A DNA stretch of 64,000 nucleotides from Escherichia coli (GTDB taxonomy: Bacteria; Pseudomonadota; Gammaproteobacteria; Enterobacterales; Enterobacteriaceae), in the NCBI RefSeq assembly GCF_024502345.1, contig NZ_JALDNN010000001.1. One strand, given 5' to 3'. The translations under genes and the position numbers were made by a program. This document shows, piece by piece, positions 6,236 to 62,754 of the stretch. Below the pieces are notes generated by a model. The model was not told where the DNA came from. It was given only the letters and a program-made list of their open reading frames with translations, and made no database searches. Numbering within the stretch: position 1 is the first letter of the stretch; each line of letters starts with the position of its first letter.

Positions 6236-6856
6236 TTATTTTTTCGCCGCGAAACGTGCCGCTGCTTCGTCCCAGTTCACCACGTTCCAGAACTCTTTGA
6301 TGTAGTCCGGACGGCGGTTCTGGAATTTCAGGTAGTAAGCATGTTCCCACACATCCAGGCCCAGAATCGGGAAGCCGGAAGCGCCAGAAATAGCTTCACC
6401 CATCAGCGGGGAGTCCTGGTTAGCAGTAGAAACCACCGCCAGTTTATCGCCTTTCAGCACCAGCCATGCCCAGCCGGAACCAAAGCGGGAAGCTGCCGCT
6501 TTCTCAAATTCTGCTTTGAAGTTATCTACGGAACCGAAATCACGTTCGATAGCCGCTTTCAGGTCACCCTGCAGGGTGGTGCCTTTTTTCAGACCTTTCC
6601 AGAACAGGCTGTGGTTAGCGTGACCGCCAGCGTTGTTGCGCAGTACGGTTTTCTTGTCTGCTGGCAGCTGGTCCAGTTTGGTGATCAGCTCTTCAACCGG
6701 CAGGTTGGCAAATTCTGGCAGGCTTTCCAACGCCGCGTTGGCGTTGTTGACGTAGGTCTGATGGTGTTTGGTGTGGTGGATTTCCATGGTCTGCTTATCG
6801 AAGTGCGGTTCCAGGGCATCGTAAGCATACGGCAGGGATGGCAGGGTATAGCTCAT
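6236..6856 (-). CDS. sodA: Manganese superoxide dismutase, 206 aa
   Basis: ORF 6236..6862; [38 protein letters not shown] matches SodA. Confidence 0.95.
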
Positions 6857-12947: not shown

Positions 12948-13190
12948 TGCCGGATGCGGCACAAGTGCCTTATCCGGCCTACAGGTCGGCAACAGTTTTA
13001 GGCCTGATAAGACGCGACATCGCATCAGGCATTGATTGCCGGATGCGGCACAAGTGCCTTATCCGGCCTACAGGTCGGCAATAGTTGTAGGCCTGATAAG
13101 ACGCGACAGCGTCGCATCAGGCATTGATTGCCGGATGCGGCACGAGCGCCTTATCCGGCCTACGGGTCGTGCATCCGACAACACCGAATT
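12948..13190. repeat. REP/BIME cluster, roughly 100-bp unit present in about 2.5 tandem copies
   Basis: Unit ccggatgcggcacaagtgccttatccggcctacaggtcggcaa...gtaggcctgataagacgcgac...gcatcaggcattgatt repeated between rhaA and rhaD. Confidence 0.75.
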
Positions 13191-14395: not shown

Positions 14396-15811
14396 TCAGA
14401 AGAAGTATTTAAAGCGAACGCGTGCGCCGTAACGGTCATCAGTATCATCACCGTGTTTTTTATCACCGTCGCTATCCAGAATGGAGTAATACGTCCCGAG
14501 GTAAATATTAAAGTTCTCCATATCCATCACATTAGCGAACTGATAAGACGCATGAATGGTGTGAATGGAGTACGTCCCTTCATCATCAATCCAGCAGTCG
14601 TTATCACAAACTACACCGCTGAATTCATCAATCTTATTGTGCGCGTAGATATAACCGAGCTCGAAACGTTTCCACAGCGCGTTAATCCCGGCAGTGAAAT
14701 CTTTCTCATTATTAGCATCTAAATAGGCGGTATTAAGATTAACCACAATGCCATTGTCCGGATCCGTTTTCAGGCCGTTCCAGGTCATGCTCATCCCATA
14801 GCCGGTACGATCGGACTGATCGACAAAATTACCCTTGCTATCGGTATAACCATAAGCATTATTTACCACGTTCGCTTCCATCGCTGCGGAAACGGTGAAT
14901 TCTTCCGTCGGCGACCAGGCAATTACTGGGCGCAGATAAGCAACATTTTTCTGCTGCTCCATATCGCGTCCATGATAATTACCGTCATTATATAAAGATG
15001 TTCCGTCTTCAAGTAACGTGTTTAATTCAAAATACCAGTTATCGAGTTGTTTGCTGACGAGGAAATTACCGCCAGCGTTAGAGCGCCCGCGGCCCTCTTT
15101 CATCATATAGATATAACCGCTGCCATCGTCATAAAGATCGTTCGCAGTATTACCGGAATGTTCAACAAAGGTATCCTGATTCAGCGGGAACATATCGTAG
15201 GCTTCAAAACGGCCTACTTTGACCTTCCAGTCGTTTTCTTTGCCAAAGAAGAATACCGCATCATCGATATTTACTGAACCGTGCATATCACCCAGCGGTT
15301 GTGCGGAGAACCCGGAGAAATAACCGTTGTCCATCTTTCGCATACCGTCAAAACCTAACAGAATACGACCATTGAGATTCCACTGTTCATTAGTGGGATC
15401 GCTATTCACATCAGCGTTGGTCATTGCCAGCAGGCCATGATTACTTTCCGCATCCATATTAAATTCTACGTCGCCGTAGATTTTTAAATCGCCATAACCT
15501 GAAAGCAAAAGATTAGGTGAGGTGGCATTTTTCTTTGCAGATTCCGCCGTTGCCTGTCCATTTACCGGCGTATTGCCCTGAGCGGCCTTAATTTCGCGGA
15601 TCTCAGCGGCTTGTTGTGTCTGCAGCTGTTTAACCTGGCTCTCTGCTTTTGCCGCCCGCATTTCTGCCGCTTCCAGGCGTTCTTCCAGCAATGCCATGCG
15701 TTGTTCCAGCAATGCCATGCGTTGTTCCAGCGTTAAATGCTGTGTTTTTGCCATACCGGTACTACATGCCAATAATAAACCGATGGCTAAAGATAATGTC
15801 GATTTTTTCAT
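14396..15811 (-). CDS. Putative outer-membrane sugar porin (ScrY/OprB-like beta-barrel) with signal peptide and N-terminal coiled-coil extension, 471 aa
   Basis: N-terminus MKKSTLSLAIGLLLACSTGMA (signal peptide), then heptad-rich LEQRMALLEQRMALLEERLEAAEMRAAKAESQVKQLQ, then Y/G/N/D-rich alternating segments and C-terminal ...RVRFKYFF typical of OM beta-barrels; SD aggga 9 nt upstream of ATG. Family assignment is from sequence features only. Confidence 0.7.
   Translation of the reverse strand: MKKSTLSLAIGLLLACSTGMAKTQHLTLEQRMALLEQRMALLEERLEAAEMRAAKAESQVKQLQTQQAAEIREIKAAQGNTPVNGQATAESAKKNATSPNLLLSGYGDLKIYGDVEFNMDAESNHGLLAMTNADVNSDPTNEQWNLNGRILLGFDGMRKMDNGYFSGFSAQPLGDMHGSVNIDDAVFFFGKENDWKVKVGRFEAYDMFPLNQDTFVEHSGNTANDLYDDGSGYIYMMKEGRGRSNAGGNFLVSKQLDNWYFELNTLLEDGTSLYNDGNYHGRDMEQQKNVAYLRPVIAWSPTEEFTVSAAMEANVVNNAYGYTDSKGNFVDQSDRTGYGMSMTWNGLKTDPDNGIVVNLNTAYLDANNEKDFTAGINALWKRFELGYIYAHNKIDEFSGVVCDNDCWIDDEGTYSIHTIHASYQFANVMDMENFNIYLGTYYSILDSDGDKKHGDDTDDRYGARVRFKYFF
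15685..15726 (-). repeat. Perfect 21-bp tandem duplication inside the porin coiled-coil region (encodes LEQRMAL twice)
   Basis: ccagcaatgccatgcgttgtt occurs twice consecutively (15685-15705 and 15706-15726), in frame. Confidence 0.9.
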
Positions 15812-16288
15812 TATTTACGTTCCCTGAAATAAAGGAGACCCTACGCTTTCCAAAAGGAATACGTATATAGAGAAATATAAGGTGTGCACTTTCGAATTTT
15901 TAATCCAACTTCAGCAGGCCGATGGATAGTATCCCGCCGCATAATATGAGTAAATCCGCTGATTTCCTGGAACGTGAGGAATATAACAATAGTGCCGTTT
16001 TTAACTAAATATCGTAAAAAATATTAGATATGATTCACGCTGACTCATAAGCCACAAATATAAATAACGTTTAGACAAATTATCTGAGACATTTAAACAT
16101 TCACAAAATCATTAAATAATAACTCTTTATTCACAAGATTTATTTTACCTACTAATATGTGCCTTACGCCGCAAAATTTATCCTTCACTCTGCTTTATAT
16201 TGTCACGACTTCACGACATATCCGCGCTCATCACAAACCCGCCCCGCTATTACAATTAACTGAAATATTTTTTCATGGAGTCCGATTA

Positions 16289-16735
16289 ATGGCAGCTCTT
16301 ACTGCAAGCTGTATTGACCTGAATATTCAGGGCAATGGCGCTTATTCCGTTCTGAAGCAGTTGGCGACAATGGCGTTACAAAACGGTTTTATCACCGACT
16401 CACACCAGTTCCTGCAAACCCTGCTGCTGCGCGAAAAAATGCACTCCACCGGTTTTGGTTCTGGTGTCGCCGTGCCGCACGGTAAAAGCGCCTGCGTTAA
16501 ACAACCGTTCGTGTTATTCGCCCGCAAAGCGCAGGCTATTGACTGGAAAGCCAGCGACGGCGAAGACGTCAATTGCTGGATCTGCCTCGGCGTACCGCAA
16601 AGTGGCGAAGAGGATCAGGTCAAAATCATCGGCACACTGTGTCGCAAAATTATTCACCAGGAATTTATTCATCAACTGCAACAGGGCGATACCGACCAGG
16701 TGCTTGCCTTGTTAAATCAAACCCTCAGCTCATAA
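16289..16735 (+). CDS. frvA: PTS fructose-like EIIA component, 148 aa
   Basis: Internal Met MAALTASCIDLNIQGNGAYSVLKQLA... of ORF 16157..16735; EIIA(Fru/Ntr) fold with HGKSACV. Confidence 0.85.
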   Translation: MAALTASCIDLNIQGNGAYSVLKQLATMALQNGFITDSHQFLQTLLLREKMHSTGFGSGVAVPHGKSACVKQPFVLFARKAQAIDWKASDGEDVNCWICLGVPQSGEEDQVKIIGTLCRKIIHQEFIHQLQQGDTDQVLALLNQTLSS

Positions 16736-23289: not shown

Positions 23290-26200
23290 ATGCAGGTCAG
23301 CAGAAGGCAGTTCTTTAAGATCTGCGCTGGCGGTATGGCAGGCACCACGGCAGCGGCACTGGGTTTTGCACCCAGCGTAGCACTCGCGGAAACTCGGCAG
23401 TATAAACTGCTGCGCACCCGCGAAACCCGTAATACCTGCACCTATTGTTCCGTAGGCTGTGGGCTGTTGATGTACAGCCTCGGTGACGGAGCAAAAAACG
23501 CCAAAGCATCTATCTTCCATATCGAAGGCGATCCGGATCACCCGGTCAACCGCGGTGCACTTTGTCCGAAAGGCGCTGGCCTGGTGGATTTCATCCACTC
23601 CGAAAGCCGTCTGAAGTTTCCGGAATACCGTGCGCCAGGTTCTGATAAATGGCAGCAAATCAGTTGGGAAGAGGCGTTTGATCGCATCGCCAAACTGATG
23701 AAAGAAGACCGCGATGCTAACTACATTGCGCAAAACGCCGAAGGCGTGACTGTTAACCGCTGGCTCTCCACCGGGATGCTGTGTGCTTCCGCGTCGAGTA
23801 ACGAAACCGGCTATTTAACGCAAAAATTCTCCCGCGCGCTGGGTATGCTCGCGGTCGACAACCAGGCGCGTGTCTGACACGGACCAACGGTAGCAAGTCT
23901 TGCTCCAACATTTGGTCGCGGTGCGATGACCAACCACTGGGTCGACATCAAGAACGCCAACCTCGTCGTGGTGATGGGCGGTAACGCCGCTGAAGCTCAC
24001 CCGGTCGGGTTCCGCTGGGCGATGGAAGCCAAAATTCACAACGGCGCGAAGCTGATTGTGATCGATCCTCGCTTTACGCGTACGGCGGCGGTAGCTGACT
24101 ACTATGCCCCTATTCGTTCCGGTACTGACATTGCTTTCCTGTCAGGCGTATTGCTGTACCTGCTGAACAATGAAAAATTCAACCGCGAATACACCGAAGC
24201 CTATACCAACGCCAGCCTGATAGTGCGTGAGGATTACGGCTTTGAAGATGGCCTGTTCACCGGCTACGACGCGGAAAAACGCAAGTACGATAAATCCTCC
24301 TGGACTTATGAACTGGACGAAAACGGCTTCGCCAAACGCGATACCACGCTGCAACATCCGCGCTGCGTGTGGAACTTGCTGAAACAGCACGTTTCCCGCT
24401 ACACGCCAGATGTGGTTGAAAACATCTGTGGTACGCCAAAAGACGCGTTCCTGAAAGTCTGCGAATACATCGCAGAAACCAGTGCTCACGATAAAACTGC
24501 CTCGTTCCTGTATGCCCTCGGCTGGACGCAACACTCCGTTGGTGCGCAAAACATTCGTACGATGGCGATGATCCAGCTGCTGCTCGGCAATATGGGGATG
24601 GCCGGCGGCGGCGTTAACGCCCTGCGCGGTCACTCCAATATTCAGGGGCTGACGGACCTGGGGCTACTGTCGCAGAGTCTGCCAGGTTACATGACGCTGC
24701 CAAGCGAGAAGCAGACCGATCTGCAAACCTACCTTACCGCCAACACGCCAAAACCGCTGCTGGAAGGCCAGGTAAACTACTGGGGCAACTACCCGAAATT
24801 CTTCGTCTCTATGATGAAGGCCTTCTTTGGTGATAAAGCGACGGCGGAAAATAGCTGGGGCTTTGACTGGTTGCCGAAGTGGGATAAAGGCTACGACGTC
24901 CTGCAATACTTCGAGATGATGAAAGAAGGCAAGGTCAATGGCTATATCTGCCAGGGCTTTAACCCTGTTGCCTCATTCCCGAACAAAAACAAAGTGATCG
25001 GTTGTCTGTCGAAACTGAAGTTCCTCGTCACCATCGACCCGCTGAACACTGAAACCTCTAACTTCTGGCAGAACCACGGTGAGCTGAACGAAGTTGACTC
25101 GTCGAAGATCCAGACCGAAGTGTTCCGTCTGCCATCGACCTGCTTCGCAGAAGAGAACGGTTCAATCGTTAACTCAGGTCGCTGGTTGCAGTGGCACTGG
25201 AAAGGTGCGGACGCCCCGGGGATTGCGCTGACTGACGGTGAGATCCTCTCCGGTATCTTCCTGCGCTTGCGCAAGATGTATGCCGAACAGGGTGGCGCGA
25301 ACCCGGATCAGGTGCTGAACATGACCTGGAACTACGCCATTCCGCATGAGCCGAAGTCGGAAGAAGTAGCGATGGAGAGCAACGGTAAGGCGCTGGCCGA
25401 TATTACCGATCCGGCAACCGGTGCGGTTATCGTCAAGAAAGGCCAACAACTTAGCTCGTTCGCCCAATTGCGCGATGACGGTACAACCTCCTGTGGCTGC
25501 TGGATTTTCGCCGGTAGCTGGACGCCGGAAGGCAACCAGATGGCGCGTCGTGATAACGCCGATCCGTCTGGCCTCGGTAACACGCTGGGCTGGGCATGGG
25601 CATGGCCGCTTAACCGCCGCATTCTGTATAACCGCGCCTCCGCAGATCCGCAGGGTAACCCGTGGGATCCGAAGCGTCAGTTGCTGAAATGGGACGGCAC
25701 TAAGTGGACCGGCTGGGATATTCCGGACTACAGCGCAGCGCCTCCGGATAGCGGCGTCGGGCCGTTTATCATGCAGCAGGAAGGCATGGGGCGTCTGTTT
25801 GCCCTCGATAAGATGGCGGAAGGTCCGTTCCCGGAACACTACGAGCCGTTTGAAACGCCGCTGGGAACTAACCCGCTGCATCCAAACGTTATCTCGAACC
25901 CGGCTGCACGTATCTTTAAAGACGACGCCGAAGCATTGGGTAAAGCCGATAAGTTCCCGTATGTCGGAACCACCTATCGTCTGACCGAGCACTTCCACTA
26001 CTGGACCAAACACGCGCTGTTGAACGCGATTTTGCAACCAGAGCAGTTTGTGGAAATCGGGGAGTCGCTGGCGAATAAACTTGGCATTGCCCAGGGCGAT
26101 ACCGTGAAAGTCTCCTCCAACCGTGGCTATATCAAAGCCAAAGCGGTGGTGACCAAACGTATTCGCACGCTGAAAGCGAACGGCAAAGATATCGATACCA

Positions 26201-54253: not shown

Positions 54254-54399
54254 AACTTTGCCTCAGGCATTAGAAATAGCGCGTTATTGTACACGGATTA
54301 ATCGCACTACAAAACAGGATCACAAACATCCTCCGCAAACAAGTATTGCAGAGTCCCTTTGTGATCGCTTTCACGGAGCATAAAAAGGGTTATCCAAAG

Positions 54400-54545
54400 G
54401 TCATTGCACCAATATAGTGCTTAATGTTTCCATTGAAGCACTATATTGGTGCAACATTCACATCGTGGTGCAGCCCTTTTGCACGATGGTGCGCATGATA
54501 ACGCCTTTTAGGGGCAATTTAAAAGTTGGCACAGTTTTCGCTTTA
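54400..54545 (+). promoter_or_regulatory. glnA control region: NtrC enhancer sites and sigma-54 promoter glnAp2
   Basis: NtrC-type dyads tgcaccaatatagtgc, gcactatattggtgca, gtggtgcag...tgcacgatggtgcgc; sigma-54 element ttggcacagttttcgct (GG at 54528-54529, GC at 54540-54541, N10 spacing). Confidence 0.75.
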
Positions 54546-61159: not shown

Positions 61160-61228
61160 AATGGTTCGTCTTTTAGCCGTTTTATTCAGTATAGATTTGC
61201 GGCGGAATCTAACAGAAAGCAAGCAAAG

Positions 61229-61470
61229 AAAAAAGGCGACAGATTACTCTGTCGCCTTTTTTCCTGACTCATAACCCTTAACGGGTCTTACAATCCTTGC
61301 AGGCCGCCAACACACCCTGTTTTTCCATTAGCCGGAACAATCCGTGTTGATTCCATTTCCGTTTAATTACGTCTCCGGACGTTTGTCTTCCTGACAATCC
61401 TCTGTCTTCGCCTCCTGGCGCTCCTGACCCTCATCCTGAGTCATTGTTCCTGTTAGCGTCCTCGCTCTAT
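61229..61470 (-). ncRNA. csrC: CsrA-sequestering sRNA CsrC
   Basis: Minus strand carries many GGA motifs in short hairpin contexts (caggatgagggtcaggagcgccaggaggcgaagacagaggattgtcaggaaga...) and ends in a GC hairpin plus U-run (plus-strand aaaaaaggcgacagattactctgtcgcctttttt); location between yihI and engB as in K-12. Ends approximate. Confidence 0.75.
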
Positions 61471-62496: not shown

Positions 62497-62607
62497 AATA
62501 AAAAACGCCCCAGTCATTACTGACTGGGGCGGCTAAAATATTCAGCCAAATCCGATTACGTGAAGTAAAAGGTCTGAAAGATAGAACATCTTACCTCTGT
62601 ACCCTAC
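62497..62607 (-). ncRNA. spf: Spot 42 sRNA
   Basis: Reverse complement reads gtagggtacagaggtaagatgttctatctttcagaccttttacttcacgtaatcggatttggctgaatattttagccgccccagtcagtaatgactggggcgttttttatt, the Spot 42 sequence with its terminator. Confidence 0.88.
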
Positions 62608-62754
62608 GCGACTAACTTTACTCTTTTTTGTTCAGTTCAGAAAGCACTTTTTGTAATTTTTTTTCAGTTGTTGCATAGGAATTTCTAATAGCCATCACAA
62701 AACGTGACAGCTTATGTTGCTTACTTACGAAAAAAGGGCATGTTCAGGCGAATC

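Follow-up and report, generated by a model that had tools for sequence, protein, structure and literature searches.

Recurrent gain and loss of one heptad in the predicted stalk of an Escherichia coli RafY-family porin, most likely by replication slippage

A stretch of 64,000 nucleotides of the Escherichia coli contig NZ_JALDNN010000001.1 (assembly GCF_024502345.1), hereafter the window, contains a gene for a RafY-family 'carbohydrate porin' of 471 aa (14396-15811, minus strand; open reading frame (ORF) and Pfam PF16966 match). The homolog in O157:H7 has been named rafY2 and has no rafRABD cluster alongside (PMC4809568). Within the predicted coiled-coil stalk of this porin a 21-bp unit, which encodes the heptad LEQRMAL, is present twice. 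The gene is best explained as a +1-heptad allele of the RafY family that most likely, and in our judgement with good confidence, originated by replication slippage at a short direct repeat. The units are identical and stand head to tail, and their number differs between strains that share the flanking sequence, ranging from zero to three. The site is a low-frequency, low-copy slippage hotspot, neither hypervariable nor phase-variable, and the polymorphism would be an ordinary coding-region variable number of tandem repeats (VNTR) generated by slippage, a familiar mutation process. No description of this polymorphism was found in the literature searched.

The perfect tandem pair was read on the plus strand as ccagcaatgccatgcgttgtt, twice and back to back, at 15685-15726. 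These are exactly the coordinates and the sequence that the original prediction had given for a perfect in-frame duplication of 21 bp, and the encoded LEQRMAL LEQRMAL had likewise been translated correctly. Perfect periodicity extends over 49 bp (15683-15731), and the pair that is in phase with the codons lies at 15689-15730 on the minus strand. Here unit 1 (15710-15730, CTGGAACAACGCATGGCATTG) encodes LEQRMAL as residues 28-34 and unit 2 (15689-15709), which is identical to it, encodes residues 35-41, the extra heptad as compared to the standard allele of 464 aa; in both, the codons are CTG GAA CAA CGC ATG GCA TTG. The pair is adjoined by a degenerate third unit (15668-15688, minus strand, CTGGAAGAACGCCTGGAAGCG), which encodes LEERLEA and is identical to the perfect unit at 16 of 21 positions, for which reason Tandem Repeats Finder reports a span longer than the perfect pair (15673-15731, period 21, 2.8 copies, 94% matches). 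The translation across the site hence runs ...HLT LEQRMAL LEQRMAL LEERLEAAE.... Besides this repeat the window has a single tandem repeat, an array of repetitive extragenic palindromic (REP) elements at 12948-13169, and an exhaustive scan of its 64 kb for periods of 10-39 detected no other perfect tandem duplication. The chance expectation of a perfect 21-bp tandem match is ~1e-8 per window (64,000 x 4^-21). A plus-strand ORF over the repeat (15649-15870, 73 aa) was rejected as spurious, the minus-strand porin ORF being both annotated and conserved.

Comparison with other strains shows that the site varies by whole units. The window reads HLT-LEQRMAL-LEQRMAL-LEERLEAAE (471 aa), EDL933 reads HLM-LEQRMAL-LEERLEAAE (464 aa) and C25 reads HLT-LEQ-RLEAAE (457 aa); in a three-way alignment they have +21, 0 and -21 bp at the site, with collinear flanks. 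Unit numbers read from the DNA of 26 loci were zero, one, two and three, corresponding to 457, 464, 471 and 478 aa. The unit added or lost is always the same 21-mer, and every zero-unit allele has the junction CTGGAAC|AACGCC, which C25 shares with L019/L020. Length change by whole heptads between strains, as had been predicted from the duplication, is thus borne out by zero to three units in the DNA of three divergent backgrounds, and copy number across isolates, which had been proposed as the check, proved variable rather than invariant.

Leaving the repeat aside, 1,367 bp of the gene were used to compute distances between alleles. Alleles of the window clade (0-4 differences) have one, two or three units. 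On the O157 background (0 differences from EDL933) one and zero units occur, the zero-unit allele keeping the O157 Met27 ATG beside the junction, and on the B2 background (~70 differences from the window) zero, one and two units. Outside the repeat the two-unit B2 allele L016 equals the zero-unit C25, and the two-unit alleles of B2 fall into at least four haplotypes that differ from one another at 4-10 synonymous sites. When two of these, 9 synonymous sites apart, were converted to synthetic one-unit versions, each was found at 100.0% over its full length in different complete genomes, and the duplication therefore appears to have arisen separately on each. Copy number also differs within the lineage of the window. 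Besides an extra unit and a REP difference, the three-unit contig L012 shows 3 mismatches to the window in 5.8 kb and 5 more in the next 1.7 kb that were compared, and the one-unit L022 shows 1 mismatch in 4.75 kb.

Synthetic proteins with one unit more or fewer were also made on four allele backgrounds and used for exact-sequence look-up in a protein collection. Three of the seven variants of non-standard length were present, namely 478 aa on the window background, 457 aa on that of O157 (EDL933) and 471 aa on that of B2, and so were the standard-length forms with one unit on the window background (464 aa) and on B2, where it is abundant. The remaining four (457 aa on the window background, 471 aa on EDL933, and 457 and 471 aa on P0006, a third common background) had no exact match in this look-up, which is blind to variants with any other substitution and gives weak negatives as a consequence. 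By parsimony, these alleles point to recurrent, independent events at one site on the window, O157 and B2 backgrounds and on sub-haplotypes of B2. A conservative count would require at least six: a change from one to two units (or the reverse) and one from two to three in the window lineage, one from one to zero in O157, one from one to zero in B2, and at least two from one to two in B2.

The two-unit allele is real and heritable and is no assembly artefact. Its exact 471-aa protein was seen on 30 contigs, the longest of 4.7 Mb, and is indexed in 64 blocks of a large protein collection, where it stands under several NCBI accessions, and identical two-unit DNA is present in the isolate assemblies GCA_050023715.1, GCA_001484475.1 and GCA_001484085.1. 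Seven loci were fetched, three from isolate and four from metagenome assemblies, and all seven have two perfect units. In six of them there are at most 8 differences from the window in up to 7.4 kb, besides a 92-bp REP-element difference in L006, and in the seventh, L007, the flanks are 1.5% diverged while the gene differs at 3 synonymous sites only. A scan for the exact duplication junction in a separate metagenome collection yielded two loci, of which L010 has a genuine two-unit allele. The other, L011 (Ga0209147_100054, 6538-6560), was rejected, the 23 nt in common with the junction being a coincidence in an unrelated gene that encodes ...ALLEQRMALRRQ... / ...LQALLEQRMALRRQYVDQ.... Short tandem repeats are sometimes mis-assembled and the two-unit form is absent from the complete RefSeq genomes of E. 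coli; an origin of the duplication in sequencing or assembly is nevertheless extremely improbable, given that the same protein recurs on so many contigs and collection blocks and that the two perfect units are found in three NCBI isolate assemblies, several independent metagenome assemblies and L010.

The porin gene is present in 2,542 of the 5,426 complete RefSeq E. coli genomes, a presence/absence polymorphism that concerns about half of them. Among the gene-bearing genomes ~97% have one unit and ~3% have none. With a 231-bp query from the window the top matches were all of 210 bp at 90.9% identity, which is the same sequence minus one 21-bp unit, and the two-unit form was in none of the 5,426 genomes. 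A synthetic three-unit query likewise found its form in none of them (no match of 252 or 231 bp, top matches 210 bp). The complete genomes closest to the window lineage have a best match of 97.7-98.5%, and it is because this lineage is poorly represented there that the two-unit allele is missing. The zero-unit version (189 bp) occurs in ~75 complete genomes, including CFT073, Nissle 1917, ATCC 25922 and clone D. All of these carry the B2 type; the O157-type zero-unit allele is in no complete genome of this set. A query with the porin repeat region matched 173 plasmid locations of the set; the few plasmid-borne copies of the porin are of standard length throughout, and the RafY paralogs aligned just up to the repeat.

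The sequence around the repeat suggests how units could be gained and lost. In the one-unit allele the 12-nt stretches CTGGAAcAACGC and CTGGAAgAACGC, the latter being the first 12 bases of the degenerate unit, are exactly 21 nt apart and match at 11 of 12 positions, an arrangement classically prone to slipped-strand mispairing. Misalignment of the nascent strand between CTGGAAcAACGC and CTGGAAgAACGC would duplicate or delete the 21 nt in between. Duplication would result in two perfect units, the 471-aa form of the window, and deletion in no perfect unit, the 457-aa form with the junction described above; both products are observed, with the expected junctions. Once two perfect units exist they would provide 21-28 nt of homology, and gain to three units (478 aa) or loss to one should become easier, with which the three-unit allele within the window lineage is consistent. 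Short direct repeats tens of bases apart give rise to precise deletion or duplication of one interval, and perfect copies are less stable than imperfect ones. Bzymek and Lovett, in 2001, and Lovett, in 2004, are said to have described deletion and expansion of tandem repeats by replication slippage, independent of RecA, in engineered reporters. In comparison with such reporters the porin site would be a natural coding example, recognized from population data, and we infer slippage as the molecular mechanism from the junctions and the microhomology.

A paralog serves as control. This 464-aa RafY-type porin (L027 1270-2664, NZ_CP060974.1), which lies beside a GH32 glycoside hydrolase and an MFS transporter and near insertion sequence (IS) remnants, contains the same LEQRMALLEERLE peptide encoded by other codons (CTTGAACAAAGA... 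as opposed to CTGGAAGAACGC), by which the microhomology is reduced to 8/12. None of eight synthetic variants with one unit more or fewer, made on four paralog backgrounds, was found in the collection, where the main allele is on at least 1,000 contigs. That no length variant of the paralog was found despite the same peptide supports an origin that is driven by the DNA.

Several points weigh against recurrent slippage or limit what it means. For one unit on the window background, the sources are all short contigs (metagenome or Logan), some of which could be strain mixtures or assembler artefacts; by k-mer reasoning, a periodic stretch of 49 bp should not collapse in assembly at k >= 31. The paralog control is built on small numbers, and the label of hotspot, as applied here, would derive from recurrence in population data. 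Non-standard unit numbers are rare, which speaks against high instability. Moreover, the conserved SGYGD motif of the barrel lies 96 residues from Met1 in most close homologs elsewhere (Citrobacter, Kluyvera, Pseudocitrobacter and others) and also in the E. coli paralogs, length differences falling mostly in the linker. This fixed distance argues for constraint on the length of the stalk, which may be under purifying selection at a site that does not seem to be highly unstable.

A different history has also to be considered, in which each length variant arose once and then reached other backgrounds when the 5' part of the gene underwent homologous recombination or gene conversion. E. coli recombines frequently, and the two-unit genes of L007 and L010 differ from that of the window at 3 sites only, although their flanks are 1.5% diverged, hence either the gene region moved or the flanks recombined. 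The zero-unit B2 allele, moreover, looks clonal, with CFT073, Nissle 1917, ATCC 25922 and clone D 100% identical over the 189 bp. We nonetheless consider this history unlikely, since the zero-unit allele of O157 keeps the O157-specific Met27 ATG immediately upstream of the junction and matches EDL933 over all 1,367 bp, whereas the two-unit alleles of B2 retain B2-specific single nucleotide polymorphisms (SNPs) from ~50 bp downstream, in at least four synonymous haplotypes of which two have exact one-unit twins. Conversion would need tracts tens of bases long, and repeatedly. Very short tracts that moved variants between backgrounds, which would require a crossover only a few codons away from the O157-specific Met27 SNP, do count against independent slippage at each background but would be less parsimonious.

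Change by whole heptads leaves both the reading frame and the register of the predicted coiled coil intact. Each unit adds a Leu at d and a Met at a, the register is kept in all four alleles, and the predicted helix core measures ~5.0, 6.1, 7.1 and 8.1 nm for zero, one, two and three units, respectively (0.148 nm per residue; ~1 nm per unit). One heptad fewer is tolerated, as the CFT073/Nissle group shows, where the short form is fixed. The phenotypic effect is expected to be small or near neutral and would concern the reach of the stalk or the stability of the trimer rather than the pore.

Heptad number could instead be an adaptive 'ruler', with slippage-prone codons preserved as a means for lineages to tune the periplasmic reach of the stalk. 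All changes are of whole heptads with preserved register, the zero-unit form has become fixed in CFT073, Nissle 1917 and their relatives, a successful lineage, two units are the major form in the window lineage (at least 30 contigs as compared to 8-13 short one-unit contigs), and roles in trimer stability or substrate hand-over have been proposed in print for stalks of the ScrY and DcaP type. A repeat of 21 bp, however, permits in-frame changes of 21 bp only, so that the preserved register needs no selection, and the rarity of variants together with the fixed 96-residue N-terminus in most orthologs of other genera suggests purifying rather than diversifying selection. An adaptive ruler is therefore improbable in our view. 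Its fullest form, with stalk length functionally tuned over a reach of ~5 to 8 nm, slippage-prone codons retained in rafY2 and not in the paralog, and both fixed forms adaptive, we regard as decidedly doubtful. If true, the number of LEQRMAL units would alter how the stalk touches peptidoglycan or a partner, for instance a sugar transporter of the inner membrane, the codon arrangement would act as a low-frequency evolvability device, and the short form of the CFT073/Nissle group and the long form of the window lineage would be adaptive. Hardly credible is a phase-variable contingency locus that would act as an on-off switch for expression of the porin. Many contingency loci, such as the 7-bp VNTR of neuO, likewise have a tandem repeat close to the start of a gene for a surface protein, but here the unit is a multiple of three, so that a change in copy number leaves the frame untouched, each of the four alleles is a full-length ORF and the copy number is restricted to zero to three.

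Assignment of the gene to the porins, another element of the original prediction, holds. Pfam PF16966 Porin_8 ('porin-like glycoporin RafY') matches with an E-value of 7.5e-153 and 509 bits, as compared to a cut-off of 25, and residues 111-471 align with profile positions 1-372 of 372, the full length of the RafY-family profile. An AlphaFold2 (AF2) monomer model was made from 77 homologs, with a mean predicted local distance difference test score (pLDDT) of 69.7 and barrel blocks mostly at 80-90. Herein residues ~104-471 (14399-15502, minus strand) constitute a porin-type beta-barrel with strands from 109 to 470, ~16-17 in number, the exact count being uncertain. Foldseek aligned the barrel with 16-stranded trimeric porins of the PDB, namely BpsOmp38, VhChiP, OmpF/OmpC, OprB and DcaP, with E-values of ~1e-11 to 1e-9 (DcaP ~1e-10). 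A profile search of PDB sequences identified no solved structure of a relative of the barrel, and in NCBIfam nothing scored above threshold, the coiled-coil-type FcmC reaching 19 bits against a cut-off of 90.

The repeat had also been placed inside a coiled coil, and 'porin coiled coil' is well supported as architecture. The model has a helix at residues 28-77 (15581-15730, minus strand), the predicted periplasmic stalk, in which the heptad register is unbroken, with a/d residues LMLMLLAAAVLQEI (L, M, L, M, L, L, A, A, A, V, L...). Hydrophobic residues occupy 86% of the a/d positions, with L, M, A or V at the core. Sugarporin_N (PF11471) is the top-scoring Pfam family for this segment and some homologs have a precomputed match to it, while on the N-terminal segment analysed here it attains 17.8-18.0 bits (E 0.004), below its cut-off of 25.7 bits. 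In a profile search of PDB chains the N-terminus weakly matched coiled coils of the GCN4/tropomyosin type. From the model and the register we infer that the stalk would form a parallel trimeric coiled coil in the periplasm. Between stalk and barrel, residues 78-103 (15503-15580, minus strand) form a low-confidence linker, probably disordered (pLDDT < 50), that varies in length and sequence among homologs. The stalk is preceded by a predicted signal peptide of ~21 residues (MKKSTLSLAIGLLLACSTGMA, 15749-15811, minus strand; hydrophobic N-terminus, AF2 helix 4-16), the cleavage site of which is probably at a ...G(M/F)A|K motif that is conserved in orthologs. The E. coli signal peptide has a lipobox-like L-L-A-C at residues 13-16 (15764-15775). 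A lipobox-like segment is found in some E. coli paralogs too (LLACNEC), and the Citrobacter and Kluyvera orthologs have no Cys at that place.

With ~464 aa and an N-terminal helix followed by a porin barrel, the protein resembles the RafY glycoporin of the raffinose plasmid pRSD2 (TCDB 1.B.15). Members of the Porin_8/RafY family are 16-stranded oligosaccharide or general-diffusion porins (PMC4827864), and by analogy with plasmid RafY a putative function of rafY2 is that of a channel through which oligosaccharides or general solutes diffuse across the outer membrane. Unlike plasmid RafY, rafY2 is chromosomal, between rhaM and frvA (or fdhD in B2), rather than beside rafRABD, and it shares 76-78% identity with the plasmid- and island-borne E. 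coli paralogs. The succession of a signal peptide, a heptad helix of ~40-50 residues, a flexible linker and a trimeric-porin-type barrel is also that of ScrY and of DcaP from Acinetobacter baumannii. Their stalks have been described as trimeric coiled coils that might contribute to trimer stability or substrate guidance, in a role called unclear (PMC6173795; bioRxiv 10.1101/306035), and for DcaP the periplasmic coiled coil has been modelled (bioRxiv 10.1101/306035). In contrast to the 18-stranded ScrY/LamB, the barrel is of the RafY, 16-stranded type, and Sugarporin_N stays below threshold. No report of natural variation in the heptad number of ScrY or DcaP turned up, although no search was aimed at it.

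The closest analogue in E. coli is NeuO of the K1 prophage CUS-3. Its poly-psi VNTR varies by slipped-strand mispairing in a 5' coding repeat that specifies seven-residue RLKTQDS units (PMC3046976). That unit is 7 nt long and present in 2-93 copies; it is frameshift phase-variable and highly unstable, with graded enzyme activity, and its heptads are not a coiled coil (PMC3046976). Both proteins gain or lose whole units of seven residues near the N-terminus and thereby form natural length series. The porin differs from NeuO in that its unit is 21 nt long, present in zero to three copies, always in frame, rarely varied and part of a predicted coiled coil.

The role of the periplasmic stalk of porins such as ScrY, DcaP and FapF is called unclear in the literature. 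Here a natural, register-preserving series of zero, one, two and three heptads exists in one E. coli porin and spans familiar strains, CFT073 and Nissle 1917 having no unit and EDL933 having one. The effect of stalk length on trimer stability, sugar uptake and envelope contacts is therefore directly testable, and this ready-made series for tests of stalk function is the main value of the finding, which leaves current understanding unchanged and is of modest interest overall. The site may furthermore be a clean natural case in which a microhomology of 11/12 seeds both duplication and deletion, with a same-peptide paralog of other codons as built-in control. On the practical side the length polymorphism may confuse allele calling and could be of minor use as a marker in typing.

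In the window, rhaBAD-rhaM is followed by the porin gene on the opposite strand and then by frvABXR; in EDL933 a 'carbohydrate porin' is annotated at the same place (rhaD-rhaM / porin / frvABX), as is the gene of the window by RefSeq. The far flank depends on the lineage, with frvABXR in the window and in O157 and with fdhD and a DUF3829 gene, often fragmented, in B2. Some genomes that do not have the porin gene retain a 33-bp remnant of the upstream region (H40), and in strain GN05652 (NZ_CP147614.1 4990387-4992558, hit H224) the gene is split by IS1A, which results in two match pieces with a transposase annotated in between. In frvA (16289-16735, plus strand) one SNP at window position ~16658 is found in L003, L004, L008 and L009 (position 2154 of these loci), where the gene is called as 123 aa rather than 148 aa, apparently by a premature stop; it is intact in the window and in L005.

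The array at 12948-13169, between rhaA and rhaD, is of the REP/bacterial interspersed mosaic element (BIME) type, with a period of 89 and 2.5 copies, and is matched twice by Rfam naRNA4. Its copy number varies among near-identical relatives, L006 and L012 being without one copy of ~92 bp, and it adds another length polymorphism at a distance of 2.5 kb from that in the porin gene. The other Rfam matches, to CsrC, Spot 42, a SECIS element, ES222, STnc370 and ES036 (61217-61470, 62499-62617, 23872-23930, 54335-54442), lie elsewhere in the window and are ordinary E. coli features unrelated to the repeat.

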